Shown: positions 8,494 through 24,389 of the stretch, piece after piece | How positions within the stretch are numbered: the first letter of the stretch is position 1 | Layout of the letters: each line of letters opens with the position of its first letter | DNA from: Deltaproteobacteria bacterium | GTDB taxonomy: Bacteria > Myxococcota > JACRCW01 | Assembly (NCBI GenBank): GCA_016218805.1 | Contig: JACRCW010000022.1 | Location: 1 to 64,000, forward strand | DNA length: 64,000 nt | Reading direction: 5' to 3' | Position numbers and translations under genes: made by a program | Notes under the pieces: model-generated | Seen by the model: the letters and a program-made list of their open reading frames with translations, nothing else | Database searches by the model: none | Told to the model about the DNA's origin: nothing

Positions 8494-10641
8494 TCAGCGG
8501 AGGTAACACGCGTCGGGTTGCTGGTCGGCGTCTGTGTCCACGCACACCAGCCCCGCGCCGGCGCCGCAATCCGCCGTGGTGGTGCACGCGCGGCGGCATT
8601 CGCCGGTGATGGGGCCGGTGGCCACGCAGGTCTCTGACGCCTGGCAACCGCTCCCGCTGGTGCGCGGCACGCAGCCCTCACGCACGCACGTGTGGTCCGC
8701 CCCGCAGCGCAGGCCCAGCGCGCACGGGGACGCCACCCCGCACGCCGCCCCCACGCCAGCAGCCGGGTGGTGGCAGGTGGCTGAGTCAGCGTCACACTCA
8801 CCACCGGCGCAGGGAGCGGCCGCTGAGCAGGGGTGGAAGTTGTTCCACGGCCAGCACAGCGGGTGCCACACGACGAACGCGCTGTCCGCCGTCACCACGG
8901 TGACGGCGGGGACGCCGTGACAGTCCATGCCGGCGGCGCAGTCCGCGGCGGTGGCGCACCGGGAGGTGCACCGGCCGGGCTCGGCCGCCAGCGCGCCATG
9001 CGGCACCAGTCCGCCCGCCGCCGCGCACGCACCGGACAGGCAGTCATCCGGCGAGCGACAGGCCTCCCCCACGCGGCCGCGCTGCGCGCAGCGCCAGGTT
9101 CCCGCGGGATCCAGCAGGCACACGCGCCCGGCGGCGCAAGCGCGGCTGGGGCCACAGGCCGGGTCGGACAGCGCGCTGCGCCCTTCCACGGTGCAGGCGC
9201 TGAACAGAGAGCGCTGGTCCAGGAACGCGCAGCCCGCAATGCCGCAATCCGCCTCGCGGCGGCACAGCTGGCGGTCCGTGGGCACGCTGACGCACACCGC
9301 GGCCACCGCCGGGGCGCTGGGACCGGTGATGGGCCGCTCGGCGCAGAACGGCAGCGCCGCGGGGCAATCACCGTCCCACTGGCACAGCTTGGAGCACGCA
9401 CCCTCGGCGCAGACGCCGTGGCGACACGCGGCGCCCTCGCCACCGGGGCACGCGTCTCCGGGGGGCAGCGAGCCCGGAAGGACGGGGCGACACCGCGGCG
9501 TGAAGGCAGCACCCGGCACCGTGACGTCGGACGAGGGTGCGCACACCTCACCCGCGCCGCACACGTCATCCTGCCCCGCCGGCGCATCCCCGCAGACCAC
9601 GCCCGTGCAAACGCCCGCTGCGTCCGCGGCGGCGCCCGCGGCCAGGCACACGCGGCCCTCCCCGCACGCCACGCCGTCACCGCACGCCGCACGGCACACG
9701 CCGTCCGAGCACTGGGCGGGGTGGGGACCGAACTGGCGGCAGTCCGCGAGGCTCCGGCACGGCCCGTCCACCGGCGCCCCGGTGGACCGGTCCGCCGTGC
9801 ACTGCAGCGCGGGAAGGAGCGGGCCTCCATCCGCCGCTGACCACCCCAGCACGCAGCTCTCGCCCTCAGTGCAGGCCGCGCCGCCCCCGCAGGAGGTGAG
9901 CGAACCGGGAAGGCACGCGCGGCCGGTCAGCGACGGGTAGTCTCCACAGCGCAGGCGCGTACCGGCGGGCAGCGGCGAGGCCGTCTCTTCCACGCGGCAG
10001 TGTTCATCCACCGAGCACGGCGCGGAACACATCCCCGCGACGCAGAGGCCGGAGGCGCATTCGCCTGGCGCGCGGCAGCATCCGCCCGTCCCGCGCGGCC
10101 CCGGGCCGGCGCCGGCACACCCCGGTTGGAGCGGCCCCGCATCCGCGCCCCCGTCCGCCCCCGCCGCGTCCGCGGCACCCGCGTCCGCCGCGCCAGCGTC
10201 CCACGCCACCCCGCTCCAGGACGAGGAACCCGGCGTGTGGGACGCGTTGGACGATGAGGCGACCGCCGACGCCGTGCCGCCGGAACCGGACGGTGCCGAC
10301 GATGTTGCCACCGCGCCCGAGGAGGCACCGCCCGACGACGTCCCGCCGTCCGCAACCCGCGTGCAGACCATGGACACGCAGCGCAGCGGCGTGCGGCAGT
10401 CCGCGCTGCGCAGGCAGGTGTCCCCTTCCCCGCCGGACGCTCCGGCGTCACCCGTCCCGCCGTCCACCACCGGCGCGCTGCACACCAGCGCCACGCACAA
10501 CAACCCCCCGGCACAGTCCTGCGACCGCAGGCAGCTGGCGCCCGCGCCGCCGCCGCCCGCGTCTCCGCGGTCCCATCCGCCGCCACCCGCGCAACCCGCC
10601 GTCAACCCGGCGAACACCCAGACTGCCCATGAACCACGCAT
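8494..10641 (-). CDS. Large Cys-rich repeat lipoprotein
   Basis: Lipobox LTAGC; many CxxxxDC..C repeats; Ser/Gly and DAG linkers. Confidence 0.8.
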   Translation of the reverse strand: MRGSWAVWVFAGLTAGCAGGGGWDRGDAGGGGAGASCLRSQDCAGGLLCVALVCSAPVVDGGTGDAGASGGEGDTCLRSADCRTPLRCVSMVCTRVADGGTSSGGASSGAVATSSAPSGSGGTASAVASSSNASHTPGSSSWSGVAWDAGAADAGAADAAGADGGADAGPLQPGCAGAGPGPRGTGGCCRAPGECASGLCVAGMCSAPCSVDEHCRVEETASPLPAGTRLRCGDYPSLTGRACLPGSLTSCGGGAACTEGESCVLGWSAADGGPLLPALQCTADRSTGAPVDGPCRSLADCRQFGPHPAQCSDGVCRAACGDGVACGEGRVCLAAGAAADAAGVCTGVVCGDAPAGQDDVCGAGEVCAPSSDVTVPGAAFTPRCRPVLPGSLPPGDACPGGEGAACRHGVCAEGACSKLCQWDGDCPAALPFCAERPITGPSAPAVAAVCVSVPTDRQLCRREADCGIAGCAFLDQRSLFSACTVEGRSALSDPACGPSRACAAGRVCLLDPAGTWRCAQRGRVGEACRSPDDCLSGACAAAGGLVPHGALAAEPGRCTSRCATAADCAAGMDCHGVPAVTVVTADSAFVVWHPLCWPWNNFHPCSAAAPCAGGECDADSATCHHPAAGVGAACGVASPCALGLRCGADHTCVREGCVPRTSGSGCQASETCVATGPITGECRRACTTTADCGAGAGLVCVDTDADQQPDACYLR

Positions 10642-10744
10642 GCCATTGCGCTCCTCGCGCCACGTCAAACGCCGCGCATGATACCCCGCCCCGGGGCCCC
10701 GCCCGCTTTTCCCGCCGCGCAGCGGCCCCGTCGGAAGAAAGTGG

Positions 10745-10786: not shown

Positions 10787-10862
10787 CGCGGGGTGGAGCA
10801 GTTGGTAGCTCATCGGGCTCATAACCCGAAGGTCGCAGGTTCAAGTCCTGCCCCCGCATCCA
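10787..10862 (+). tRNA. tRNA-Met(CAT), initiator type
   Basis: 76-nt cloverleaf; C1:A72 mismatch; GGG/CCC anticodon stem; loop CTCATAA; TTCAAGT T-loop; encoded CCA. Confidence 0.97.
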
Positions 10863-10873
10863 ACTTACGTCGT

Positions 10874-10916
10874 GAAAGCGCGCGCTTGGGAAAGCCCCCG
10901 GCGCGCGTTTTCGCTT
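10874..10916 (+). terminator. Intrinsic terminator after the tRNA (element-encoded)
   Basis: GAAAGCGCGCGC...GCGCGCGTTTTC stem followed by T-rich bases; near copy at 18943-18986. Confidence 0.7.
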
Positions 10917-10927
10917 GTGGGGCAGGC

Positions 10928-10946
10928 TGGACCCCTATTGGACCAC
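10928..10946 (+). repeat. Putative integrase arm-type sites, left end
   Basis: TGGACCCC-TAT-TGGACCAC: two TGGACC units 11 bp apart; same arrangement at 18764-18782. Confidence 0.6.
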
Positions 10947-11035
10947 GGAACGGTCCTTACAGGGGCGCCCAGGCCGCAAAGCGGGGGTGTTCTTTTGCGG
11001 GACGCGCGTGTGTTGCCCGGCTCTACGGAGCAACC

Positions 11036-12136
11036 ATGCCGGACAGGCACGGAACCAAGTGGCGCGCACGCTGGCTCGACGTCGAGGGGCGACGTCGCTG
11101 CGCCGTCTTCCTGAGCCACGCCGACGCCGCGGCGTACGAACGGGAGCGCAAGTCCGAGGCGGAGCAGATCCGACGAGGGCTGCGCCCCGCGCCCGTGCCC
11201 GAGCACTCGTTCGACGAGTTGTGCGACTACTGGCTGACGCACAGGGCGTCCCGAAAGCGCTCGGCCAAGGACGACGAGAGCATCATCCGACGACACCTGC
11301 GGCCGACGTTTGGCGCACTGCGTGTTGCGGATGCGTCGTGGGTGGAGCGCTACGACGCCTTCGCGTCGACGTTCGCGGCGACACCCAAGACCCTGCACAA
11401 CGTCGCTACGCTCCTCGTTTCCATGCTCCGCTGCGCAACGGACCTCGGGTGGATCGCCCGCTGCCCGTCGATACGCAAGCCCCGCATCGTGCGGGACGCG
11501 ACGGACTTCCGCTACCTGCGCACGCCGGAGGAAATCGGGCGCTTCCTTCGGGCCGCCCGCAACGAAGGGCCGGACGTCTTCACGCTCTACATGGCTGCCG
11601 TCTACACCGGCATGCGTGCCGGCGAGCTCGCCGGGCTGCGCTGGGAGGATATTGACCTGTCGCGGCGGCTCGTGACCGTGCAGCGGAGCTTCGGCGGGCC
11701 GACGAAGGCCGGCTACGTGCGTTACGTGCCCCTCGTCGACGCGCTCCTCCCGCACCTCCAGGCGTGGCGGCTGCAGTGCCCCGGCGACCTCGTGTTCCCG
11801 AGCAAGACGGGCACCATGCTCTTGCCGTCTGCGCGCATCTTCCAGGACGTCCTCCAGCGCGTGCTGCGCACCGCGGGCTTTCCCGACGCCACGCGCAGCG
11901 GGAAGCCGTGCGCATACGTCACTTTCCATGACCTGCGGCACACGTTCGCGTCACACTGGATGATGAGCGGGGGCGACATCTTCAAGCTTCAGCGCATCGG
12001 TGGGTGGAAGTCGTTCGCGATGGTGCAGCGCTACGCGCACCTCGCACCGGACGCGTTCACGGCGGACTACGGGCGCATGCCGCGCGTCGTCGTCGAGGAA
12101 TCGGCGGCGGTCATTCCGTTGCGGGCGTGGAGATGA
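11036..12136 (+). CDS. int: Tyrosine recombinase / integrase
   Basis: N-terminal arm-binding-like KWRARW; YTGMRAGEL, TKAG, FHDLRHTFAS, GGW, QRYAH catalytic motifs; GGAG RBS before ATG 11036. Confidence 0.95.
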   Translation: MPDRHGTKWRARWLDVEGRRRCAVFLSHADAAAYERERKSEAEQIRRGLRPAPVPEHSFDELCDYWLTHRASRKRSAKDDESIIRRHLRPTFGALRVADASWVERYDAFASTFAATPKTLHNVATLLVSMLRCATDLGWIARCPSIRKPRIVRDATDFRYLRTPEEIGRFLRAARNEGPDVFTLYMAAVYTGMRAGELAGLRWEDIDLSRRLVTVQRSFGGPTKAGYVRYVPLVDALLPHLQAWRLQCPGDLVFPSKTGTMLLPSARIFQDVLQRVLRTAGFPDATRSGKPCAYVTFHDLRHTFASHWMMSGGDIFKLQRIGGWKSFAMVQRYAHLAPDAFTADYGRMPRVVVEESAAVIPLRAWR

Positions 12137-12189
12137 GAGCACGCATGGCAGCCGCCGTCGTGAATGCGCGCGACCTCGCCCTGCGCCAC

Positions 12190-12420
12190 CTACCGCGTCG
12201 CCGCCTCCCACTGCTCAAGCGGCTTCAGATTCATCTCAGGCACCTCAAGCTCCATGGGCTCGTAGTCCGGTCCGGGGTCGAGGCGGACGCGCCACAGCCG
12301 ACGACCGCCGACGCCAATGGGACCGCGGTCTTCAATGATCTTCACCTTGGCGATGTACGGCGCCATGTCCAGCATGACATCCTGGCCAAGGGAGAACGCG
12401 GGCGGGTGGCGTCGGCTCAT
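12190..12420 (-). CDS. Small hypothetical protein, SH3/KOW-like beta pattern
   Basis: 76 aa, starts 9 nt after the HEPN gene stop; FSLGQDV...AKVKIIEDRGPIGVGGRRLWRVRL. Confidence 0.6.
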   Translation of the reverse strand: MSRRHPPAFSLGQDVMLDMAPYIAKVKIIEDRGPIGVGGRRLWRVRLDPGPDYEPMELEVPEMNLKPLEQWEAATR

Positions 12421-12429
12421 AGTGCAATC

Positions 12430-12996
12430 CTACCAGGGCGCCTTGTTCGTGACCACCTGGACCTGTTGGCTCACCGCGACGTCGAGGGTCGCCGCAAGGC
12501 CATCGCAAGCTCGCCGCCATCGGACCACCTTGGCAAGGCGAAGTCCGGGCTTCACCTTGGAAAAATCGTGATGCGCAATTGCATTGCGGTAGGAGTTGAG
12601 TTCTTCCAAGGCGTCTTGCCGCCCTTTCGTTCGCACGTCGACGGACTTCGCCGCGTCCCAGATCTTGGATGTGCCAAGGAAGTCGAAGTCTGCACCGATG
12701 GCGCTCGGGCTGGCGTTTCCTTTGTCGAGCCGCCGGTTCTTGAGGAGAGCGGCGCGCAGCACTGCGCCCATCGACGGGCCGGCAGCGTCCGCCAAGGCGT
12801 CCACTGCCTCGGAGTGAAGGTCGCGGCAATACCGCTGGAACTGGGCAGCGACGAGAAGTGCATAGGCATAGTTCAGTTGCCGCGTCGCCCAGCGACGTCC
12901 GCGACCGGCGCCTCCGACGCTCTTGTGCGCAGTTTCCAGTTCGTCCAGTTCGTGCTGCCCCTCACCTTGCCACCGTTTCAGTGCGCCGGACGCCAT
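12430..12996 (-). CDS. HEPN-domain protein (predicted RNase)
   Basis: Rx4H motif in LEELNSYRNAIAHHD; N-terminal helix YALLVAAQFQRYCRDLHSE typical of HEPN folds. Confidence 0.75.
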   Translation of the reverse strand: MASGALKRWQGEGQHELDELETAHKSVGGAGRGRRWATRQLNYAYALLVAAQFQRYCRDLHSEAVDALADAAGPSMGAVLRAALLKNRRLDKGNASPSAIGADFDFLGTSKIWDAAKSVDVRTKGRQDALEELNSYRNAIAHHDFSKVKPGLRLAKVVRWRRACDGLAATLDVAVSQQVQVVTNKAPW

Positions 12997-13144
12997 GGAT
13001 CGCGTCAGTCGCACACACCCGGCCCGCAGGCAACGTCGTCATGGACGCCTACTGTCGGCGTGCACCCTCACAGCGCGCGGGGCGCCTCCGCCTTCGAGGT
13101 CTTCAATCTCGCGCGAGTAACCGCTAAGGCGGGCCTACCACGCC

Positions 13145-13765
13145 ATGCGTGGCGTTCAATACTCGGCAGACCCGGTCAGGCTGGGGCAGGTGAAGCCGTC
13201 CCTTGCCGCCCGCCCGACGGAGAACAAGCGCCCTCGACGTCAGAGCGCCCGTTTTGGCGAGTACGTCCGCCGCCTGCGACTCACCAAGGGCTGGACCCTC
13301 GACGACGCGGCGGAACACATGGGCCTTGATCCGAAATACCTGCAGAAGATCGAAACGGGCCGCGTGAATGTGACCCTTCCGACGGCCCTACGCGTGCTCT
13401 CAGGTCTCGGCGAACCCATGAGCGCCGCGTTCGAGGAGCCTGCCCAACGCCCGCCCAGCCGGCCGACGTTGGTGGCGACGCGCGTCGATGATCCGGACGT
13501 CGCGCTGCACGTCGTGGGTAACAACGTCGCGCGACTCCGTCTCTCACTTGGCTGGACGCAGCGGACGCTTGCGGCGCGCGTGGGACTTGGCCTGACGACG
13601 GTGCAACAGGTTGAGGCAGGGAAGCAGAACCTCACCGTTCGCTCGCTGGTTCTCCTCGCCGCAACGCTTGACGTCGACGTGGCGACGCTGTTCCTCGCGG
13701 GACCCGAGACGGCCCGCCGTCAGCGGCGGCCACGGGTGACAGGGAACCCGCGCCCCCGGACGTAG
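13145..13765 (+). CDS. XRE-family regulator with two HTH domains
   Basis: FGEYVRRLRLTKGWTLDDAAEHMGLDPKYLQKIETG and VGNNVARLRLSLGWTQRTLAARVGLGLTTVQQVEAG. Start uncertain. Confidence 0.85.
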   Translation: MRGVQYSADPVRLGQVKPSLAARPTENKRPRRQSARFGEYVRRLRLTKGWTLDDAAEHMGLDPKYLQKIETGRVNVTLPTALRVLSGLGEPMSAAFEEPAQRPPSRPTLVATRVDDPDVALHVVGNNVARLRLSLGWTQRTLAARVGLGLTTVQQVEAGKQNLTVRSLVLLAATLDVDVATLFLAGPETARRQRRPRVTGNPRPRT

Positions 13766-13929
13766 ACCGGGCAGGATGCGCCCGGGCGCCGTCCGCTCCG
13801 CGCACCGCAAATCCGTGTTTTCCGTCGGCAATCTCCTCCGGAAAAAGGAGGGGTGCCTTTTGCGGGACGACGTCATCGCAAGAAAGCCCAAGGTCTGACC
13901 TCCAACGCCATCACGGCAAGGAGGACGAT

Positions 13930-14181
13930 GTGTCAGACCTCATGACGTACAAGGAAGCGGCACAGTACATCGCGGTCCCGCTTGGGACGCTGTACTCGCT
14001 CGTGTGCCGCAAGCGTATCCCCCACGTGCGGCTGGGCAAGCGCTTCGTGCGCTTCAAGCGCGAACACCTCGACAAGTGGATCGACACCGGCGTGGTTCGC
14101 CAGTCGGGCGAGTACGCGGGCCTTGGGCATGCGCCAGTCGGCGGCCATGCTGACGCAACGACGACGGCCCCAAGCCGGTAG
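13930..14181 (+). CDS. xis: Excisionase-like HTH protein
   Basis: LMTYKEAAQYIAVPLGTLYSLV...IPHVRLGKRFVRFKREHLDKWI; AAGGAGG RBS before GTG. Confidence 0.88.
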   Translation: MSDLMTYKEAAQYIAVPLGTLYSLVCRKRIPHVRLGKRFVRFKREHLDKWIDTGVVRQSGEYAGLGHAPVGGHADATTTAPSR

Positions 14182-14195
14182 CGCGCGGGCGTGTC

Positions 14196-16163
14196 GTGGA
14201 GCCGTTGCACGGGGTGCCGTGCGCCCCGTTGGGGCGCAGTAGCGGCCGTCAGCCGGCCGCTGGCGGCGCGCTTGCGCGCCCACCGACCCGTGTAGGGGAG
14301 CCGGCGGGGGCCCCGGCGACGCCGGGGGCGGCTCCCCGTGAGCGCGACGCTGACACCGCCGCAGCCGTCACCTCTCAAGAGCGCAGTTGGAGCGCCGTCG
14401 AGTGCCTCGCGCAAGCGCCCGAGCCTGCCGCCCGACGTGCGGCGCCCGCGCCGCGCACACGGCAGCCGCACGCCTATTTCAGCGGCCCGACCGACGCGGA
14501 CCCGGTGCTGGCCGTTCCGGCGAACTGGCCTGACGACATTGCCCGTGTTGCCTACGCTGACCTTGTCCACCGACTCGAAACCGGATTGCTGCGGCCGGGT
14601 GACGACGTCCACGCGTGGACGCTTGATGACGAACCCGGCGAGCTGGGCCGCTACACGCCGGTGCGCCTCCTCAGTCCGGCGCAATGCGCTGCGAGCCTGC
14701 AACGTGCGTCCAGCGCCCCCGGTCCGGCGGCGAACGACCTGGAGCATGATCTCGGCGCACACCGCATCGGATACTGCCAACCGGAGCCCTTCGTGCCCCG
14801 CGACGATGACGAGCGGGAAGCGCTCGCGGGTGTGCGAGGCGACTGCATTCTCGCGGAGAACGCCCAGCGCGACGCCCTCGCGGTCAAACACCGCGAGGAG
14901 CGGGAGGTGCTCCGATCATCGCTGCGCGGTGAAGGCGCGAACCGCGCGCAGGGGGCTGACAACGCGGAGGCGGCCGATGCGGACGCTCGCATAGCTCGCC
15001 TAGGAGCGCGCCAGCGCGACGAACGCGATCGCCTCCATGCCGAGGGCAGGGAGCGGCTCCGTGCTGCCCTGGACGCCTGCCAGAGCGCGCTGAGGGTGGC
15101 ACGAATTGCGCGGCCCGCGGACGGGGCGACGGCGGGCCTTCCCGTTAACTTGAACAGGGCTCAAGTAGTTTCCAGGGACAGCGACGACGTCACAGACTTC
15201 GCGCGCTGGGAGAACGAGGGCGGCGCAAGGCCGCCGCCGCCACCCGACCCCTTGACCCGCCTCAACCTGTACGGGTGGCGCAATCCGACGCGCTGCGAGA
15301 GCGGCACTTGGATGCGGTGGAAGTGCGACAACGGCCACGAGCGCTCCGCCTACTGCGGCTGCAAGACGCTGGACTGCGAGGTTTGCCGCGACGAGGTGAC
15401 CCGGCAGCGGGCCAACCGTGCCTGGGAGACAACGGGGCGACTGGCGTCGTCCTATGGCTGGCACGTCCTCACGGTTCCGCCATCGTGCCGACAAGCCGTT
15501 GCCGACGCCGGGCCCCGCGCGTTCGCGCGCACTGCGTGGCGGGCGGTTGCCCGGTGGTACGCAGAGAAGGGCTATGACGTCGGCGGCATGGTCTTCCTGC
15601 ATCCCGTGGGGTCCATGCCCCGCGCCTGCGCATGCGGTGCCCCGCCGCCGACCGACGGCGTTGGTGCTCTGCGCGCGCGCTGCCGCTGCGGCCGTGACTT
15701 GGACTTTGACGATGGGGACCGCTTCCACCCGCACGCAAACGTCGGCGTGCCGCTCGTTGGACAGGACGGCAATGGCGCCGCTGTCGTCGTGCCGCGGTGG
15801 AAGACCGAGGCGGACTTGAAGCGCCTACGCGATCTGTACCGCCAGGAGCTTTCGGCACTTGTCGGGGAGGACACGGGCCGCGTCGTCGTCAACTATCGGT
15901 ATACCAAAACCACCGTCCAAGCCCGACACGCACTGCGGTACTTTGCCCGCTCGTTCCCGGGCTGGAGCGCGTGGACGTCGCTGCGCGGAGGCAGTTTCTA
16001 CGGCCTCTTGTCGAACGGCGTCGCCATGCGCTTTCATCTCAACGTCATCCGTGCAGGGCTGCGGCGGGCGATTGAGCCCCCTCTGCGCGCCTGCGCCGTG
16101 TGCGGCGCGGAAAGTCACATCGTGAGCATCACGGCTGGAGCGCCACCAACCGGGCCTCCGTGA
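14196..16163 (+). CDS. HUH endonuclease related to IS91-family transposases; probable rolling-circle Rep or relaxase
   Basis: The C-terminal ~290 aa carry, in IS91 order: RCESG...CDNGH...CKTLDCEVC (Zn), HVLTVP, FLHPVG, FHPHAN, ALRYFAR, FYGLLSN, CAVCG and terminal TGPP. N-terminal half unassigned; start uncertain. Confidence 0.72.
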   Translation: MEPLHGVPCAPLGRSSGRQPAAGGALARPPTRVGEPAGAPATPGAAPRERDADTAAAVTSQERSWSAVECLAQAPEPAARRAAPAPRTRQPHAYFSGPTDADPVLAVPANWPDDIARVAYADLVHRLETGLLRPGDDVHAWTLDDEPGELGRYTPVRLLSPAQCAASLQRASSAPGPAANDLEHDLGAHRIGYCQPEPFVPRDDDEREALAGVRGDCILAENAQRDALAVKHREEREVLRSSLRGEGANRAQGADNAEAADADARIARLGARQRDERDRLHAEGRERLRAALDACQSALRVARIARPADGATAGLPVNLNRAQVVSRDSDDVTDFARWENEGGARPPPPPDPLTRLNLYGWRNPTRCESGTWMRWKCDNGHERSAYCGCKTLDCEVCRDEVTRQRANRAWETTGRLASSYGWHVLTVPPSCRQAVADAGPRAFARTAWRAVARWYAEKGYDVGGMVFLHPVGSMPRACACGAPPPTDGVGALRARCRCGRDLDFDDGDRFHPHANVGVPLVGQDGNGAAVVVPRWKTEADLKRLRDLYRQELSALVGEDTGRVVVNYRYTKTTVQARHALRYFARSFPGWSAWTSLRGGSFYGLLSNGVAMRFHLNVIRAGLRRAIEPPLRACAVCGAESHIVSITAGAPPTGPP

Positions 16164-16294
16164 GCATTGCTGCGCTCACCCGTTGATCGCAAGCCCCCGA
16201 CCAACGCGCCGGCACGGCACCCTGGAGGCGCCGTTGCAGCGAAATGCGCGTCTGCGTACAAGACTCGTCATACCGAGCAAGCGGGAGGTGGCCA

Positions 16295-17338
16295 ATGCGG
16301 TTTGTCGTCGCGGGCGCTGTGTTCACGGCGCTGGTAGCGTGCACAGGTGGCGGCTCGCCGTCGTCCTCGTCATCTGGCGGTGCTTGCGTTCCCGGTGATC
16401 AGAAGGCGTGCGCATGCGCAGGGGGAACGCAGGGCGTCCAGGCATGCAAGGCTGACGGCAGCGGGTACGAGGTGTGCGGTCAGTGCGGCGGCGGAACGTC
16501 GTCGAGTGGAGGCATCAGCGGCGACACTGCTTGCACCGACGTCGCCACTGCCGTGTGCACCCGAATCGCTGCATGCTCAAACTACTGGCTAAAGGCGGCG
16601 TATGGAGACCACGCCGCGTGCGTTGCGCGGGCGAGGCTCGCGTTTTCTTGCCCGGGCGTGTTCTCGCTTGACGGAGCCACGGCGACCCCCACGCAATTTG
16701 AGGCATGCGCGACCGCGCTCCAGTCGACCACCTGCCAAGACCTCATCGTCGCCAAGTGGCCGACGGCCTGCCAGCTGGCGGGGACTCGCCCTAACGGGAG
16801 TGGCTGCGGCATGGCGATGCAATGTCAGTCCGGTGCATGCAACACGACGACGGCCAGCCAGTGCGGCACTTGTGCCGCGATGCCGCAGGCAGGAGACACG
16901 TGCACGACGGATGAATGCGACGGAGGCCTGACGTGCGTCAACGGGGTGTGCGCCCGATACGGCAGTGCCGGCGACACTTGCGACGCGAACCACCCGTGCA
17001 ACCCGTTTCTCACCTGTCGGTCTGGCACGTGCGGAACCCCCCTTGCGGGCGGAGCCACCTGCGACCCGCAGGCGAGCCAGTGTGACGCTTACGGCGCTTC
17101 GCTGTTCTGCAACGCGCAGAGACTCTGCCAAGTCATCGACGTCGTCGGCGCAGGGAGTCAATGCGGGTACGCAGCCGGTGCCACGTGCACGGCCATGGGC
17201 ACTTGCCGCAACGGCTTGTGCGTGTCGGCCGCGGCCGATGGCGCCGCCTGCGACGTCACGAATGGGCCCCAGTGCCTTTGGCCGGCGACGTGCGCCCAAG
17301 GGCTGTGTCACCTCACCGATCCGGCGGGGTGCAACTAA
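16295..17338 (+). CDS. Cys-rich lipoprotein
   Basis: GGGAGGT RBS; lipobox LVAC; Ser/Gly linker; dense Cys repeats. Confidence 0.85.
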   Translation: MRFVVAGAVFTALVACTGGGSPSSSSSGGACVPGDQKACACAGGTQGVQACKADGSGYEVCGQCGGGTSSSGGISGDTACTDVATAVCTRIAACSNYWLKAAYGDHAACVARARLAFSCPGVFSLDGATATPTQFEACATALQSTTCQDLIVAKWPTACQLAGTRPNGSGCGMAMQCQSGACNTTTASQCGTCAAMPQAGDTCTTDECDGGLTCVNGVCARYGSAGDTCDANHPCNPFLTCRSGTCGTPLAGGATCDPQASQCDAYGASLFCNAQRLCQVIDVVGAGSQCGYAAGATCTAMGTCRNGLCVSAAADGAACDVTNGPQCLWPATCAQGLCHLTDPAGCN

Positions 17339-17340
17339 CA

Positions 17341-17811
17341 ATGGCCGCGTCCGTCGTCGCGGCACGTTCCACCGTCGCGAGACTCCTGCGGGCCGGACTG
17401 CTTGTTGGCGCTGGCCTCGCTGCGTTCGCCGACGCGCCAACGGCGGACGCGCGCCCTCGTGGAGACGTCACGCACGTCAAAGTCCAAGCGAAGAAAACCA
17501 AGGAACGCAAACAAGTCCAAGTGCAGGCGAAGCGGCGCAAGGACGAGCCGAAGGCCGCGCAGGATCGCACCACCCACGACGCACGACGAGACAAGAACGG
17601 GAGAATCAAGCGGAGCGCGGCCGCGAAGCATCGCTTCCGTGAGAAGAACCCCTGCCCTTCGACGGGACGAACAAGTGGAAGGTGCCCCGGTTACGAAGTC
17701 GATCACCGGAGGGCGCTGGCCTGCGGAGGCGCCGACTCGCCGGGCAACATGCAGTGGCTCACGACCAAGGAGAACAGGGCGAAGGGTGCGGACTGCGCAC
17801 GGACACGTTGA
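17341..17811 (+). CDS. HNH endonuclease with N-terminal signal/hydrophobic segment
   Basis: CPSTG...CPGYEVDHRRALACGGADSPGNMQWLTTKENRAK; basic linker; ATG 2 nt after the upstream stop. Confidence 0.8.
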   Translation: MAASVVAARSTVARLLRAGLLVGAGLAAFADAPTADARPRGDVTHVKVQAKKTKERKQVQVQAKRRKDEPKAAQDRTTHDARRDKNGRIKRSAAAKHRFREKNPCPSTGRTSGRCPGYEVDHRRALACGGADSPGNMQWLTTKENRAKGADCARTR

Positions 17812-18759
17812 TCACCGGCCCTTTCTCTTCCGTCGCCCGCTTCCTTGCAAGGGACTAAGCAAGACTGCCTTCCCGTGCCGCAGCGACGAACTGGCGACCT
17901 CTGGCGACGACGACGCGGCGCGAAGCCAATCGGGCGGCTGCACCCCCAGCGCTTGGCAAGCGGCCTCAGACCGGGCCGCCTTCGCGTGCGTGACCTCAGG
18001 GGGCGGCTCGGGAGAATTCTCCAACGCCTGTGCCAACTGCAACGCGGCCGCCTTGACGTCAACGAACAACCGGGGGGCGTATCCTAGTCTCGCGCAGCAG
18101 TCTGCGAGGAAGGACGCACCCCACCGAAAGTCCAGCGCAAGTGCCTCGCATGTTGCGGCCAAAAGCAACCATGGGTGCGTCCCTGGCACAATTGCGTCGT
18201 CGTCACAGTTGTTCATCAAGCGAAGGACCAGCGACGGAGTGCCGTCTGGAATGGCCGCTTGAATGTTGAAGATGGTTCGCGCGGACCGACCCCACACGTT
18301 CCATACGAAGTCGGGAAACGCGTCGCGAGCCGTCGGAGGCGCGTGCTTCTTGGTAGCCCGCTTTGGGGACGGGCGGAAGGCCCGTGCCCGCGCAGCCTCC
18401 TCGTCGGTCAGAGGAAGCGAACAGTCGGCACATGCACGTATCACCGCCTCCGCGCCACCTCCCGCGTCGAAAGCAACACGCGCCACGTCCAACTGCATTG
18501 CGATGCGCAGGTCGCCGGCCTTCCGGACCGACCGGCCCTCGCCGCGCCCCAGTGGCCGTTCCCGCTCGACTTGCTGCGCAAGAGCGTTGGCGTTTCGGAT
18601 GCTGTCGACCTGCGCTTTCCAGGCGGCGTGCCTCTCAGACGGTAGCGGCGTGTCCTGACGACGACAAAACGCGTACACCTTCGCGTGATACAAGACCTTC
18701 ACCGCCCACTGCACCAACGCCGTGGCTTCGCGGACCACCTCGTCGTCGTCGTCGGGCAT
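17812..18759 (-). CDS. Hypothetical protein at the element's right end, possible HTH
   Basis: Long ORF abutting the HNH stop; WGRSARTIFNI resembles a recognition helix. Start uncertain (18759 or 18774). Confidence 0.55.
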   Translation of the reverse strand: MPDDDDEVVREATALVQWAVKVLYHAKVYAFCRRQDTPLPSERHAAWKAQVDSIRNANALAQQVERERPLGRGEGRSVRKAGDLRIAMQLDVARVAFDAGGGAEAVIRACADCSLPLTDEEAARARAFRPSPKRATKKHAPPTARDAFPDFVWNVWGRSARTIFNIQAAIPDGTPSLVLRLMNNCDDDAIVPGTHPWLLLAATCEALALDFRWGASFLADCCARLGYAPRLFVDVKAAALQLAQALENSPEPPPEVTHAKAARSEAACQALGVQPPDWLRAASSSPEVASSSLRHGKAVLLSPLQGSGRRKRKGR

Positions 18760-18763
18760 TCTT

Positions 18764-18782
18764 TGGACCACCATTGGACCAC
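18764..18782 (+). repeat. Putative integrase arm-type sites, right end
   Basis: TGGACCAC-CAT-TGGACCAC, 11-bp period, same orientation as the left-end pair. Confidence 0.6.
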
Positions 18783-18813
18783 AGGATGCCGAAAACCGGC
18801 CAGCCCGGCAAGG

Positions 18814-18841
18814 TTGACAGGGTTGGCAAGGCACGTATGCT
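18814..18841 (+). promoter_or_regulatory. sigma70-like promoter pointing into attR
   Basis: TTGACA-16 bp-TATGCT, overlapped by three tandem 9-mers GGCAAGGTT/GACAGGGTT/GGCAAGGCA (18807-18833). Confidence 0.5.
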
Positions 18842-18886
18842 GCCGGAATCACCATGTTTCGCCGGGATTTACATCGCGCGGAGCGC

Positions 18887-19241
18887 CTCATAACCCGAAG
18901 GTCGCAGGTTCAAGTCCTGCCCCCGCATCCAACTTACGTCGTGAAAGCGCGCGCTTGGGAATGCTCCCCGGCGCGCGTTTTTGCTTGTGGGGCAGGCTTG
19001 ACCCCTATTGGACCACGGAAACGTCCTTACAGGGGCGCCCAGGCCGCAAAGCGGGGTGTTCCTATTCGGGACGGGCGTATGTTGCCGAAACCAAGTGGCG
19101 CGCACGCTGGCTCTACGTTGACGGACGACGTGGCTGTGCCGTCTTGCACAATCACGCCGACGCCGCGGCGTACGAACGTGAGCGCAAATCCGAGGCGGAG
19201 CAGATCCGGCGTGGGCTGGGCCCTGCGCCCGTGCGGAGCAC
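18887..19241 (+). repeat. attR plus diverged copy of the element's left end (homologous to 10818-11206)
   Basis: 75 bp identical (18887-18961 vs 10818-10892), then a diverged terminator, arm site and integrase 5' end. Confidence 0.9.
19088..19241 (+). pseudogene. Integrase 5' remnant
   Basis: TKWRARWLYVDGRRGCAVLHNHADAAAYERERKSEAEQIRRGL matches the intact integrase; RBS and ATG deleted; truncated after about 50 codons. Confidence 0.88.
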
Positions 19242-19351
19242 AACGTCACTACGCTGCTCGGGTCCATACCCGACGAGCAGCCACGGTGTCGCTTGCCGTG
19301 GCGGACGCCCTCATGGCGTGAGCACAGCGGCGGTCCCGCCGGTGCAGCACA

Positions 19352-19663
19352 TCAAACGCGACGCCTTGCCCAGTATCCAGGGCGCCGTCGTTCATGCGCG
19401 ACCGCGACGATGAGAACGTGGTCAGTGCGCACCTCGTAGATGACCAAGTACGGGAAACCGCTGACCAGCGCGCGCCGTGGCTGCGCATCCGGTGGGGCGT
19501 GGCCCAGCGGGGAGAAGCGCAGCGGGTTGACGCTGATGGCGTGGGCGGCGGCCTGCACGGCGTCGACGAACGCGGCCCCAAGGCCCTCGCGCTTGGCCGC
19601 GTACCAAGCCGCCGCTTCCGTGATTTCCTCCTTGGTGTCGGGATGCCACCGGAGCGGCGTCAT
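19352..19663 (-). CDS. RelE/ParE-family toxin
   Basis: HPDTKEEITEAAAWY...GLG...F, FPYLVIYEV, IVAVAHERRRPGYW. Confidence 0.9.
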   Translation of the reverse strand: MTPLRWHPDTKEEITEAAAWYAAKREGLGAAFVDAVQAAAHAISVNPLRFSPLGHAPPDAQPRRALVSGFPYLVIYEVRTDHVLIVAVAHERRRPGYWARRRV

Positions 19664-19896
19664 TTGCGCTTGATGGCGGCGCGGGCGGCACCCAGCACTT
19701 CGTCCGTGGAGAGTGTAGCCACGCGGCCCTCGTTCACCTCACGGATGCGGCGGACAGCTTCTGCCAGCCACGCGGCATCCGCGTCCGGATCTTCAGGCCC
19801 CTGCAAGGAGTCCAGCAGGCGCGTGGCCAGGGCCAATCGCTCGCCCTCAGGAAGGGCCAGGGCCGCGCTGGTGATGTCCTGGGTGGGGTCTGCCAT
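19660..19896 (-). CDS. Addiction-module antitoxin component
   Basis: ALALPEGERLALATRLLDSL...AAWLAEAVRR; 4-nt overlap with the toxin. Confidence 0.88.
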   Translation of the reverse strand: MADPTQDITSAALALPEGERLALATRLLDSLQGPEDPDADAAWLAEAVRRIREVNEGRVATLSTDEVLGAARAAIKRK

Positions 19897-20065
19897 GAAC
19901 CGCATCCTAGCCCACCCGGGCGGGCCTGGCAGGACCGCCGTCGCGCAGTCCCGTGACGCGCCAGTGCCGCTCATGTCCCGTTGGGACGCGCTTTCCGGTG
20001 CTATCTCCGCGCGGCGATGCAGTAAGCGCGCGTCCCGGCTCAGCTTTGTGGATGCGGAAGAACGC

Positions 20066-20091
20066 GTTCAAGTCCTGCCCCCGCATCCAAC
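20066..20091 (+). repeat. Third tRNA-Met 3' fragment (outer att site)
   Basis: GTTCAAGTCCTGCCCCCGCATCCAAC, identical to the tRNA T-arm, CCA and next 2 nt. Confidence 0.9.
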
Positions 20092-21500: not shown

Positions 21501-24389
21501 ATGGCTCCCCCGCAGAAGCCGGGTGGCCCCCCGCCGCCCACGCGGCCCAGCCGTCCCACGCTGCCAACGCGGCCGCCCGATCCTGCGGCGCTGGAGCCGC
21601 GGCCGACGCTGACGTCCATGCGGGTGCTGCCGGCGGGTGGAGCACTCCCACCGCCCACCGACGCGCGCGCCGAGGCGAGCCCCCAGGGCACGGCGGAGAC
21701 CGCGGACACCTGGCGGCACGACGCGCTCACCGGTGCGTGGCACACGGTGGGGTCCGCCCTGGACGCGGACATCCGCATGGAGGACGCGGCCGGCCGGCAT
21801 GCGCGCATCCGCCGCGTGGCGGGCAACCGCTTGGAGGTGGAGGACCTGGGACGGGGCGTGTGGGTCAACGGCAAGCGGGTGGAGCGCGCCGTGGTGGCGC
21901 TGGACGCGCGCATTGAGCTGGCCGGTGCGGTGCTGCCGCCGTCACGCATCCCGGATGATGTGCTGCTGGAGTCCGAACTGCCGCGCCTGGCGCAGTCCAT
22001 TGTCATTGGGCGGGACGGCAGCGTCTGCCAGCTGGCGGTGAATGACGCGCGGGTGTCCACGCGGCACGCGCGGCTCACCGCCGACGAGGAAGGGTGGGTG
22101 CTGGAGGACCTGCAGTCCACCAACGGGACGATGGTCAATGGTCAGAAGGTGCGGCGGATGCGCATTGGCTGGCGGCAGGCCTTCCACGTGGCGGAGGTGC
22201 GCCTCACGCCGCTGCAGGTGGTCAGGGAGGTCAGCCACCAGGCGGCGCCGTTCCAGGGCACGGTGATGGTGGCGGTGGATGAGCTGGCGCCGCCGCCGCA
22301 GGACGCGCTGGCGCGCGCGGCCACCAAGCCGCGCATGGTGGTGGGCCGTTCGCCGGAGGCGGACATCGTGGTGGACAGCCCGCACGTGTCATTGCGCCAC
22401 GTGCTGGTGGAACAGAAACCGGACGGGTTCCTGGTCACGGACCTGCGGAGCACCAACGGGACGTTTGTCAACGGCGAGCGCATCACCGCGCCGACGCTGG
22501 TGCGGCCGCGGCAGGTGTTCCACCTGGGCGGCTACCCCTTCAAGCTGGACGGGTCCGGGCGGGCGGAGGCGCCGGAGCGCGCGTGTGTGCACGGCCTGCG
22601 GGTGGAGTTGCAGGAGGCCAGCATGACCGCCGGCGGCGCCACGGTGGTGGACCGCGTCACGGTGTGCGTGGAGCCCGGAGAGATGGTGGCCATCATGGGC
22701 CCGTCCGGCGCGGGGAAGACGTCACTGCTCACGCTGTTGTCCGGCCACGGCGTGCCGTCCTCCGGCGCGGTGCTGTTGGACGGGCTGGACGCGCACGCGC
22801 ACGACGCGATCTTCCGCCACGCCGTGGCGCTGGTCCCGCAGGAGGACGTGATGCACCGGATGCTCACGCCCAGCGAGGTGTTGTTCTTCACCGGGCGCCT
22901 CAACTTCCCGGCGGACACCACGGCGGCGGAAATCCGCACCCGCGCCGTCCAGGTGCTCAAGCGCCTGGACCTGGAGCACGCAGCGCACGCGCGGGTGGGT
23001 GACGAAGTGGTCCGCGGCCTGAGCGGCGGCGAGCGCAAGCGCGTGAATGTGGCCATGGAGCTGATGCACGAGCCGTCGCTGTTGTTGCTGGATGAGCCCA
23101 CCTCCGGCCTGGACGGGCGCAGCGCACTGCAACTGGTGCGGCAGTGCCGCGGGCTGGCCACCGCCGGGCGGACGGTGATGATGACCATCCACCAGCCGCG
23201 CGAAGAGGCGCTGGCCCTGTTTGACAAGGTGCTGCTGCTGGCCCAGGGCGGGAGGCCGGCCTACTTTGGTCCGCCGGCCGGCATCCGCCACTACTTTGAA
23301 ACGCACGTGGAGAACGCGGAGGCGGGCGCCGCCAACGCGGCGGACTTTGCATTGGAGGTGCTGGACCCGCAGGACAGCGCGCGCCGCCGGCCGCCGGAGT
23401 TCTGGGCGGACACGTTCCGCGCCAGCGCGCAGTTCTCGGAAGTGGCGGCGCGGCAGCGCCAGGGCGCGTTGGAGGGGTCGTCCGCGCTGGCCGCACCCGC
23501 GCCGCAACGCGCCCGGGCATGGCGTCAATTTGTGACGCTGGCGTGGCGGTACGCGCTGGTGAAGTGGCGGGACCGCGCCGCCCTGGGGCTGCAGTTGCTG
23601 CAGGCGCCGCTCATTGCCGCGGTCACCGTGCTGTTGTTCCACCGCGGCCGGTTTGTCCCCATCCGCGGTGATGACGACGTCACACCCGCGCTGGTTGTGG
23701 CCGCGGCCTCCGCGGTGTGGCTGGGCACCAGCAACGTGGCGCGCGAGGTGGTGGGCGACCGTGCGATTTTCGCGCGCGAATCCCGCCGCGTGGTGCGCGC
23801 CGGGCCGTACCTGGCCGCCGTCACCGCGGTGCAGTTGCTGCTGATACTGGTGCAACTGCCGTTGCTGGTGGGCCTGGAGCAGATGTTTGTGAAGTTCACG
23901 GCGCCGTTCCTGCTGCTGGGCGGCGTGGTGATGCTGCTGGGCGCCGCGGCGCTGATGATGGGGCTGCTGGTCTCCGCGCTGGTGCGCACCCAGATGGCGG
24001 CGGCCGTGGTGGTACCGCTGCTCATCCTGCCGCAGATCCTGTTGAGCGGGCAGTTGGCGCCGGTGGGCGGCCGGTCCGCCACCACCACGCAACAGGTGCT
24101 GGCGGCCCCCATGCTGCTGCGCTGGGGCTACTCCGCGCTGGTCAACGTGGAGTTTGCGGAGCTGGCCGAGGAGCGGGCGGAGACGCCGTGGGGACTGCGG
24201 GCGGCCAAGGGCCGCGAGTGGGTGCTCCCGCGCCTGGGGTTTGAGCACGATCCGCCCTGGCTGCCGCGCACGCTGGTGTTGGTGATGGGCCTGGCCAGCG
24301 GCGCCGCGGCGTGGTGGGTCCTGGCGCGCCGCGCGCGCCGCCCGGTCCGCCGCACCGCCGCGCTCCCTCCGCCCACCGCGCCACCATGA
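21501..24389 (+). CDS. FHA-domain ABC transporter (ABCG-like NBD plus membrane domain)
   Basis: Two canonical FHA domains (IGR..STRH..STNGT; VGR..SLRH..STNGT) and one degenerate; GPSGAGKT, LSGGERKR, LLLDEPTSGLD; about 6 TM helices. Confidence 0.92.
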   Translation: MAPPQKPGGPPPPTRPSRPTLPTRPPDPAALEPRPTLTSMRVLPAGGALPPPTDARAEASPQGTAETADTWRHDALTGAWHTVGSALDADIRMEDAAGRHARIRRVAGNRLEVEDLGRGVWVNGKRVERAVVALDARIELAGAVLPPSRIPDDVLLESELPRLAQSIVIGRDGSVCQLAVNDARVSTRHARLTADEEGWVLEDLQSTNGTMVNGQKVRRMRIGWRQAFHVAEVRLTPLQVVREVSHQAAPFQGTVMVAVDELAPPPQDALARAATKPRMVVGRSPEADIVVDSPHVSLRHVLVEQKPDGFLVTDLRSTNGTFVNGERITAPTLVRPRQVFHLGGYPFKLDGSGRAEAPERACVHGLRVELQEASMTAGGATVVDRVTVCVEPGEMVAIMGPSGAGKTSLLTLLSGHGVPSSGAVLLDGLDAHAHDAIFRHAVALVPQEDVMHRMLTPSEVLFFTGRLNFPADTTAAEIRTRAVQVLKRLDLEHAAHARVGDEVVRGLSGGERKRVNVAMELMHEPSLLLLDEPTSGLDGRSALQLVRQCRGLATAGRTVMMTIHQPREEALALFDKVLLLAQGGRPAYFGPPAGIRHYFETHVENAEAGAANAADFALEVLDPQDSARRRPPEFWADTFRASAQFSEVAARQRQGALEGSSALAAPAPQRARAWRQFVTLAWRYALVKWRDRAALGLQLLQAPLIAAVTVLLFHRGRFVPIRGDDDVTPALVVAAASAVWLGTSNVAREVVGDRAIFARESRRVVRAGPYLAAVTAVQLLLILVQLPLLVGLEQMFVKFTAPFLLLGGVVMLLGAAALMMGLLVSALVRTQMAAAVVVPLLILPQILLSGQLAPVGGRSATTTQQVLAAPMLLRWGYSALVNVEFAELAEERAETPWGLRAAKGREWVLPRLGFEHDPPWLPRTLVLVMGLASGAAAWWVLARRARRPVRRTAALPPPTAPP

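Follow-up and report, generated by a model that had tools for sequence, protein, structure and literature searches.

An initiator-tRNA-integrated element of a Myxococcota bacterium with a predicted HUH rolling-circle initiator related to IS91 transposases

An integrative element with a predicted rolling-circle initiator

The 64-kb window of DNA analyzed here (positions 1–64,000 of contig JACRCW010000022.1, assembly GCA_016218805.1) belongs to a Deltaproteobacteria bacterium of the phylum Myxococcota and contains an element of about 8 kb, which is integrated at an initiator tRNA gene and codes for a predicted rolling-circle initiator (Rep) of the HUH nuclease superfamily. The element is probably an integrative rolling-circle replicon devoid of capsid and transfer genes, that is, an integrated rolling-circle plasmid or cryptic integrated element; the traits that characterize integrated rolling-circle plasmids, namely att repeats, an integrase, a replication initiator, and the absence of virion and mating genes, were all found.

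Between the att copies, the genes follow the order integrase (int) – cargo – repressor – excisionase (xis) – HUH gene – cargo, as described in an earlier, sequence-only reading of this DNA. The plus strand codes for a 366-aa tyrosine integrase (11036–12136; PF00589, E = 2e-27), a double XRE-type helix-turn-helix (HTH) regulator which is the repressor candidate (13145–13765; HTH_3 in two stretches, E = 1e-22), an excisionase-type HTH_17 protein (13930–14181; PF12728, E = 1e-11), and the 655-aa HUH protein (14196–16163, with the start codon uncertain within 14196–14229), which is predicted to be a rolling-circle initiator from a family alignment, a structural model, structural matches and profile comparisons. 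Searches of Pfam, PHROGs and NCBIfam matched none of the element genes to capsid, Zot, primase or conjugation families, in line with the same reading, and this anatomy also supports its proposal that the element is integrative and relies on tyrosine recombination for excision.

Fold and active site of the predicted initiator

The 655-aa protein matched no Pfam or PHROGs family and no sequence in the PDB, and a word-indexed homologue search with its C-terminal half returned nothing. A phmmer search against 1.84 billion representative sequences retrieved 84 proteins at E ≤ 0.001, the query itself among them. The family alignment comprised the C-terminal half of the query and 77 of the other 83 proteins, six short ones being left out (78 sequences in total); conserved in the family are a zinc ribbon, VxTxP, HPxG, PHx(N/H), HxxRYxxRxFPxW, and a C-terminal CxxC. 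The query combines a lineage-specific N-terminal half, which is common to its closest relatives (P0088–P0090 and P0002) and matched no family, with a C-terminal half containing the zinc ribbon, His469, His513-x-Asn515, His578-x-x-Arg-Tyr582, and the terminal CxxC. The upstream His and the catalytic Tyr occur in all 78 sequences, the first His of the HUH motif in 77, and a His four positions before the Tyr (HxxRY) in 73, while the second HUH position is occupied by Asn (56 members), His (14), Glu (4) or Asp (4). The metal-binding motif and the catalytic Tyr of the superfamily thus appear to be present, the former as a variant H-x-N. That the enzyme might be inactive, as its HUH motif reads HAN, was considered and rejected, because Asn is the commonest residue of the family at this position; Asn also acts as a metal ligand in the HEN relaxase MbeA.

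The structural model of the protein reached a pLDDT of 90 (single-sequence folding, only 37). The six best VIA structural matches among 48,161 solved chains were HUH nucleases (Z-scores of 8.6–7.1, rmsd of 3.2–3.5), namely parvoviral NS1/Rep, SIRV1 ORF119, and vientovirus Rep. A search of a viral structure library gave 13 matches at E ≤ 0.001, all unnamed; the named entries in lower rows are microvirus initiators. The model and its matches support an HUH fold for the product of 14196–16163.

Relationship to IS91 transposases

Among named families, the IS91 transposases are nearest to the HUH family, because its profile aligned with that of 11 IS91 transposases at E = 3e-20 (hhalign; 99.3% over 138 columns), as compared to 2e-7 for seven Rep_1 proteins and 2e-6 for three SNJ1-like RepA proteins. 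Three random sets of seven IS91 sequences gave about 4e-19, the same test of SNJ1 RepA versus IS91 transposases 3e-7, and hmmsearch for SNJ1 0.016. An IS91-like HUH enzyme, as postulated in the sequence-only reading, is therefore a fair description of fold and nearest named family. The alternative of a Rep_1- or SNJ1-like rather than IS91-like protein, suggested by ESM Atlas features that are nearest to Rep_1 clusters (0.96), was rejected on these size-matched profile comparisons. Rep_1 (PF01446) did not match the protein, nor did it appear among the best 25 of 27 families for the 78 members; a Rep_1 search of five genomes returned no match, controls included, and is uninformative. Judged against three reference sequences, the protein does not belong to the SNJ1-like RepA proteins by sequence, and the motifs differ.

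Nevertheless, the protein is not an IS91 transposase. It scored 22 bits against NF033538 (cut-off 125; control transposase L008, 432 bits) and did not match PF04986 (Y2_Tnp) or PF14319, the latter giving weak matches to 14 of the 78 family members; it has one Tyr (HxxRY) where IS91 has two, an H-x-N motif, and a single gene copy in the host genome. The correspondence of HxxRY and YxxRY is a manual pattern reading; the hhalign alignment is confined to the N-terminal 138 columns, and motif 3 was placed by neither of two aligners. Trees built from 61 members of the family and 11 IS91 proteins separate the two groups with a support of 1.0 under both alignments (redundant and fragmentary loci left out; 35 of the protein hits used; no outgroup). 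Since the trees lack an outgroup and the C-terminal halves align poorly, no direction of descent was inferred. On these sequence comparisons, the HUH family is separate from the IS91 transposases and is their nearest non-transposase relative found in this analysis. It comprises 83 clusters at 50% identity, which are missed by Pfam and PHROGs and lie below the NCBIfam cut-off.

In the loci read, no family member was multi-copy or located among unrelated host genes (known ori/ter sequences were not used), so that free IS copies with ends of their own, which the sequence-only reading had named as evidence against its proposal, did not emerge. The idea of a repurposed IS91 transposase is not supported: the gene belongs to a separate family, and its members with readable context reside mostly on small circles and phage-like contigs without an integrase. 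A tyrosine-recombinase gene immediately precedes the genes of true IS91 transposases of the phylum (L008, L016, L017, and L019). The host genome also contains a weak match to the HUH-family profile beside an integrase-like frame (L142; G000:C165:24221–24589), which is probably an IS91 fragment.

Distribution of the Rep family

A motif scan of JGI metagenomes yielded 81 matches, of which 32 loci, some redundant, are family members at E ≤ 1e-30. Terminal repeats of 123–141 nt identify five member contigs as circles of 2,307 bp (L117), 3,144 bp (L060 and L083), 5,753 bp (L085), and 9,504 bp (L063). L060, L067 and L083 represent one 3,144-bp circle in different rotations, which codes for the HUH Rep, an HTH_17 protein and an AAA_25 ATPase. 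Further members are located on contigs of 10–17 kb together with M23 peptidase, transglutaminase-like or tail-like genes, but no capsid was confirmed on them; a clade comprising L062, L064, L073, L098, and L138 consists of high-GC, phage-like contigs of 13–17 kb with HUH Rep, transglutaminase-like and M23 genes and no recognized capsid. L065, L071, L130, and L137 are elements of about 5 kb that combine an HUH Rep (H-x-N, HxxRY) with a serine resolvase.

The 401 genomes of the phylum contained 11 matches, a floor set by a stricter filter: the host protein, four family members, and six IS91 transposases. Two of the members lie in proviruses. Provirus L013 carries a capsid gene besides the HUH-family Rep, and the Atlas model of the capsid protein matches double-jelly-roll (DJR) P2/P3 clusters with TM-scores of 0.66–0.73. 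This 12.6-kb DJR provirus (L013:48–12676, genome G129) has no integrase and lies between a complete dif-like site and a partial one, and therefore probably integrates through the host XerCD; DJR prophages integrating at dif have reportedly been published for Vibrio. Provirus L038 harbors the Rep together with packaging-type ATPases; in L038:447–19134 (identical in sequence to the loci of G157), two phage-like gene sets in divergent orientation (ATPase, large capsid candidate, lytic enzyme) surround one Rep, and neither an integrase, a tRNA nor a dif-like site was found there. The remaining two members, L014 and L015, are capsid-less, att-flanked elements with a tyrosine integrase, located at tRNA-Arg (52-bp att, 6,213 bp) and tRNA-Ser (56-bp att, 4,222 bp), respectively. 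Att-flanked relatives, whose absence the sequence-only reading had named as evidence against its proposal, thus exist in these two cases, but int-xis-HUH synteny is not the usual state of the family. Since L014 and L015 form a distant clade with altered motifs, the pairing of an HUH-family gene with an integrase arose more than once.

The closest proteins, P0088–P0090, are 55% identical to the query and are encoded on contigs of 2,977, 9,182, and 8,868–8,875 bp; the recurrence of contigs of 8.87 kb points to a complete unit similar to the present element. Next in the tree are P0002, then P0003 with the 2,307-bp circle, and then a 12.4-kb phage-like contig; circle L117 is the nearest relative whose DNA was read. 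No family member was recovered by scans of IMG/VR or from GenBank phages and PLSDB plasmids (query P0006), and a GTDB motif scan gave 35 matches, about the number expected by chance, one of which was real.

Integrase, excisionase and the replication position

Relatives of the integrase at E ≤ 1e-60 occur in 21 of the 401 genomes of the phylum, host included; a scan of IMG/VR gave one match of 28%. Nineteen of the 22 other integrase matches (L176–L194) were examined as sister loci, three running off their contigs being left out. Twelve of the 19 adjoin a tRNA-Met(CAT) gene, and 14 have a homologue of xis. A replication-type gene follows xis in seven of 13 annotated sister elements (34 selected genes), coding for DnaG-type (two elements), D5/DUF5906-type (two), Prim-Pol, DUF3987, and Rep_1-like HUH proteins (one each); the DUF3987 protein presumably acts as a helicase, and the Rep_1-like HUH protein, of element L188, scored just under the cut-off. 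Because seven of these 13 sisters carry a replication-type gene at the position of the HUH gene, this position is a replication slot with interchangeable modules. The replication role that the sequence-only reading had assigned to the HUH enzyme is supported, and our best explanation includes that an HUH Rep has been swapped into the replication slot of an int-xis chassis common in the phylum. The large genes downstream of xis in L181 (703 aa) and L184 (742 aa) matched no family. L176–L194 as a whole represent a Myxococcota family of int-xis islands, most of them next to tRNA-Met(CAT), whose replication genes are interchangeable and whose cargo is of defense type.

Integration site and element boundaries

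The integration target is an intact tRNA-Met(CAT) gene of initiator type (10787–10862, plus strand), the sole tRNA gene that ARAGORN found in the window. Its initiator marks, read from the sequence, are C1-A72 and the three G-C pairs of the GGG/CCC anticodon stem. The discriminator base is U (end ...GCAUCCA), as in all three att copies; A is usual at this position. The left att site (attL; 10818–10892, plus strand) begins with the first base of the anticodon loop and is identical over 75 bp to the right one (attR; 18887–18961, plus strand), which consists of the 45-bp 3' half of the tRNA gene and 30 further identical bases; the two starts are 8,069 bp apart. The direct repeats noted in the sequence-only reading are hence real, but the 45 bp given there for the exact repeat is merely the part inside the tRNA gene. 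Beyond the exact 75 bp, the flanks remain 83% similar up to 11206 and 19241, reaching into a copy of the 5' end of the integrase gene. The similarity extends this far because a decayed sister element comes next. This older remnant (18932–20091) comprises a P'-like arm, a frameshifted 5' piece of int (about 19079–19241), a ParE/addiction-module toxin-antitoxin pair (19352–19974, minus strand) and a third att core of 26 bp (20066–20091). On the simplest reading, two successive integrations took place, and the present element pushed the older sister element, now a 1.2-kb remnant, downstream. A second int fragment is likewise present at sister locus L178.

The third att core had escaped the earlier reading, as had a pair of tandem repeats which are candidate arm-type sites of the integrase, an 8–9-bp repeat on the P' arm (10928–10946, plus strand) and its counterpart on the P arm (18764–18782, plus strand). 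The pattern TGGACC.C.ATTGGACCAC occurs in the 6.4-Mb genome only at 10928 and 18764, with a one-mismatch copy at 18998, inside the remnant. Each arm thus has one 19-bp tandem motif, at a distance of about 110 bp from the att core, and its restriction to these places is as expected of arm-type sites. A hairpin, probably terminator-like, follows the tRNA gene (10868–10915, plus strand; DNA fold).

The element is real and probably intact. An independent contig covers 10957–18916 in one uninterrupted piece, which makes an assembly artefact unlikely. Its GC content is 67.7%, versus 70.2% for the host genome, and contig depth was 26.4 in the element and 23.3 and 23.4 in the flanks, values which do not represent a copy number. 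Four sequencing runs of one study contain the element, one of them possibly its source, and no RNA run is listed. The contigs of these runs contain no att joint, but contigs of this type would not reveal one that passes through a 75-bp repeat.

Cargo genes and genomic neighborhood

Downstream of int, the minus strand carries a 76-aa ORF without family match and unassigned function (12190–12420), followed by a gene for a HEPN-like protein (12430–13014; RiboL-PSP-HEPN, E = 1.5e-4, below the cut-off). The latter might tentatively be regarded as an RNase toxin or defense gene; PADLOC gave no match for it. Behind the HUH gene, the plus strand codes for a cysteine-rich, probably exported protein (16244–17338; weak DUF7107 match), a 43% identical paralogue of which is encoded elsewhere in the host genome (contig C100; tblastn), and for an HNH-like nuclease with a hydrophobic N-terminus (17341–17811; PHROGs endonuclease VII/HNH, E = 3e-6 to 3e-4). 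The last cargo ORF (17812–18759, minus strand; about 315 aa) matched no family at E ≤ 0.001 and is functionally unassigned. Judging from their ORFs, the flanking host genes code for an FHA-domain ABC-transporter-like protein and a long cysteine-repeat lipoprotein-like protein (window positions 21501–24389 and 8494–10668).

Proposed life cycle and alternative explanations

In the proposed life cycle, Int would recombine attP with the anticodon-loop region of the tRNA-fMet gene, restoring the tRNA and pushing the older sister element downstream. Upon derepression, Xis and Int would excise an 8,069-bp circle, and the HUH protein would nick its double-strand origin via the single Tyr582, the metal being held by His469, His513 and Asn515. 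Host polymerase and helicase would then conduct rolling-circle replication; with only one Tyr, termination would probably need a second subunit. The circle would finally re-integrate at tRNA-fMet.

Several results weigh against such a replicon. Excision, the circle and replication were not observed in the assembled contigs that constitute the data. No DNA motif near the gene is shared among 25 relatives, and no hairpin stands out; shared 8-mers, common nick motifs, hairpin z-scores, and blastn against 11 relatives yielded no origin candidate. Foldseek found nothing in the PDB at E ≤ 0.001, and structural Z-scores of 7–8.6 are moderate. The HUH Rep family occurs in none of the 19 elements with the same integrase; conversely, none of the 32 metagenomic Rep loci has a tyrosine integrase and none of the 31 scanned a tRNA, although only 13 of the 32 hold at least 5 kb. 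No relative shows the same int-xis-Rep order. In the Reps of L014 and L015, the motifs are changed to HxE or HxM, and motif 3 starts with A or R, so that these HUH proteins may be inactive.

The alternatives differ in what the HUH protein would do and in how the element would spread. Rather unlikely, though compatible with the replicon model as an added route of spread, is a phage satellite, i.e., a rolling-circle element packaged by a tailless DJR helper with a Rep of the same family. Proviruses of the phylum do contain this Rep family (L013 with a DJR capsid, L038 with packaging-type ATPases), the 8 kb of the element are below the 9.5–17 kb of its phage-like relatives, and the int-repressor-xis-replication layout resembles that of satellites; however, eight query proteins detected no helper capsid or ATPase in the host genome, Zot was not found there either, the element has no recognizable interference or packaging gene, and in the tree the Reps of the proviruses lie far from that of the element. 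A broader version appears somewhat less probable still, namely that the element is a satellite of the tailless DJR phages of the phylum, sharing the kind of Rep of its helpers, and that the Rep family is a surviving bacterial replicon lineage ancestral to IS91 transposases, which would have acquired a second Tyr and an additional segment as they arose from it. If this were true, the step from plasmid to transposon could be tested by a few point changes.

That the HUH protein serves mainly as a relaxase, feeding the excised element of an integrative mobilizable element (IME) to the pore of a conjugative helper, is improbable. The int-xis-HUH layout without mating genes would fit, and relaxases related to rolling-circle initiators were reported for 118 of 144 streptococcal IMEs in the accessible part of PMC5357655. 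The motif order, however, is of the Rep type, with the Tyr after the HUH motif (our alignment; PMC5714925, accessible part), no coupling protein was found in the element, nor PF02534 in the 92%-complete host genome, and relatives occur in settings that require an initiator, namely minimal circles and proviruses. Because of motif order and missing coupling protein, the relaxase option of the sequence-only reading lost ground to an initiator. It is also quite improbable that the element is stranded, with a Rep no longer used and vertical maintenance for the sake of its cargo; the adjoining decayed sister element and the lack of visible activity agree with this, but the reading frames of int, xis, the regulator gene and the Rep gene are all intact, the att sites are identical over 75 bp, and both arm-type sites and all conserved catalytic residues are kept. 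Least credible, and largely refuted, is the landing of an IS91-type rolling-circle transposon, or of its transposase, in an ordinary tRNA island. IS91 transposases are the nearest named family, and some IS91 copies such as L008 have an upstream tyrosine-recombinase gene; against this stand the sub-cut-off score and absent Y2_Tnp match, one Tyr rather than two, the separate clade, the single copy, and a family that never behaved like an insertion sequence in the loci read. An integrated rolling-circle replicon hence remains our preferred explanation.

Comparison with known systems

The kind of element, an integrated rolling-circle replicon with an IS91-related Rep, is already known from archaea; what appears to be new is the bacterial Rep family together with its active site and the range of plasmids, tailless phages and integrative elements in which it occurs. 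The sequence-only reading did not recognize the combination as a named family, and although an archaeal precedent exists (NitAQ6f-E2; PMC6563490, accessible part), no description of the bacterial HUH family or of the combination was found in the literature covered, which included few subscription papers; members might be listed in the supplementary data of Kazlauskas 2019 and Yutin 2018. In their accessible parts, Yutin 2018 (PMC5894146) describes DJR phages with phiX174-like and M13-like initiators and does not mention transposases, and PMC13107129 and bioRxiv 2025.08.03.668216 have no bearing on the family. Kazlauskas 2019 (PMC6668415, accessible part) linked IS91 to bacterial and archaeal plasmids and proposed an origin from extrachromosomal replicons; the HUH family offers a concrete candidate sister group of IS91 for this proposal. 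Its active site is unusual (H...HxN, HxxRY). The family connects small plasmids, tailless phages and integrative elements, and searches with its profile uncover proviruses that IMG/VR did not yield in this analysis. Combined with a tRNA-fMet integrase, a functional replicon could moreover provide vectors for myxobacteria, for which few plasmids are known.

Satellites of the PICI and P4 type show the same succession of int, regulator, xis, replication gene and cargo at a tRNA gene within about 8 kb, and primase versions occur among the sister elements; the present element differs in having a rolling-circle HUH protein in place of a primase/helicase, and no terminase or capsid-size genes were recognized. 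RepA of SNJ1 is reportedly homologous to IS91, going by the title of a paper by Wang from 2018. The thaumarchaeal integrated element NitAQ6f-E2 has an SNJ1-like initiator (Krupovic 2019, PMC6563490, accessible part), and SNJ1 RepA drives rolling-circle replication (PMC12642351). Both the integrated element, which is capsid-less, and the tailless virus SNJ1 use an IS91-related HUH protein to initiate rolling-circle replication; these systems, however, are archaeal, and SNJ1 RepA keeps HxH, has another Tyr motif, and is distant in sequence. IMEs with initiator-like relaxases (Coluzzi 2017, PMC5357655, accessible part) share the tyrosine integrase, tRNA-type target, initiator-like HUH protein, and absence of a mating pore, but belong to another HUH family and phylum, and the present element lacks TcpA or another coupling protein. 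With Rep_1 proteins of pC194/pUB110, the enzyme has in common the zinc ribbon, HUH motif, single catalytic Tyr, and Rep-type motif order, while profile similarity is weak and a Rep_1 Pfam match is absent.

The closest resemblance is to IS91, IS801 and IS1294, with which the N-terminal zinc ribbon, VxTxP, the upstream His, HPHx(H/N), (Y/F)GxL, and the C-terminal CxxC align column for column. IS91 requires both Tyr residues of YxxxY (PMC5714925, accessible part), whereas the HUH family has HxxRY instead of YxxRY, Asn for the second HUH His, and, by manual reading, lacks a segment of about 55 aa after motif 3; the present protein additionally has a long N-terminal extension, occurs without IS-like copies, and is encoded between the att sites of a tyrosine integrase.

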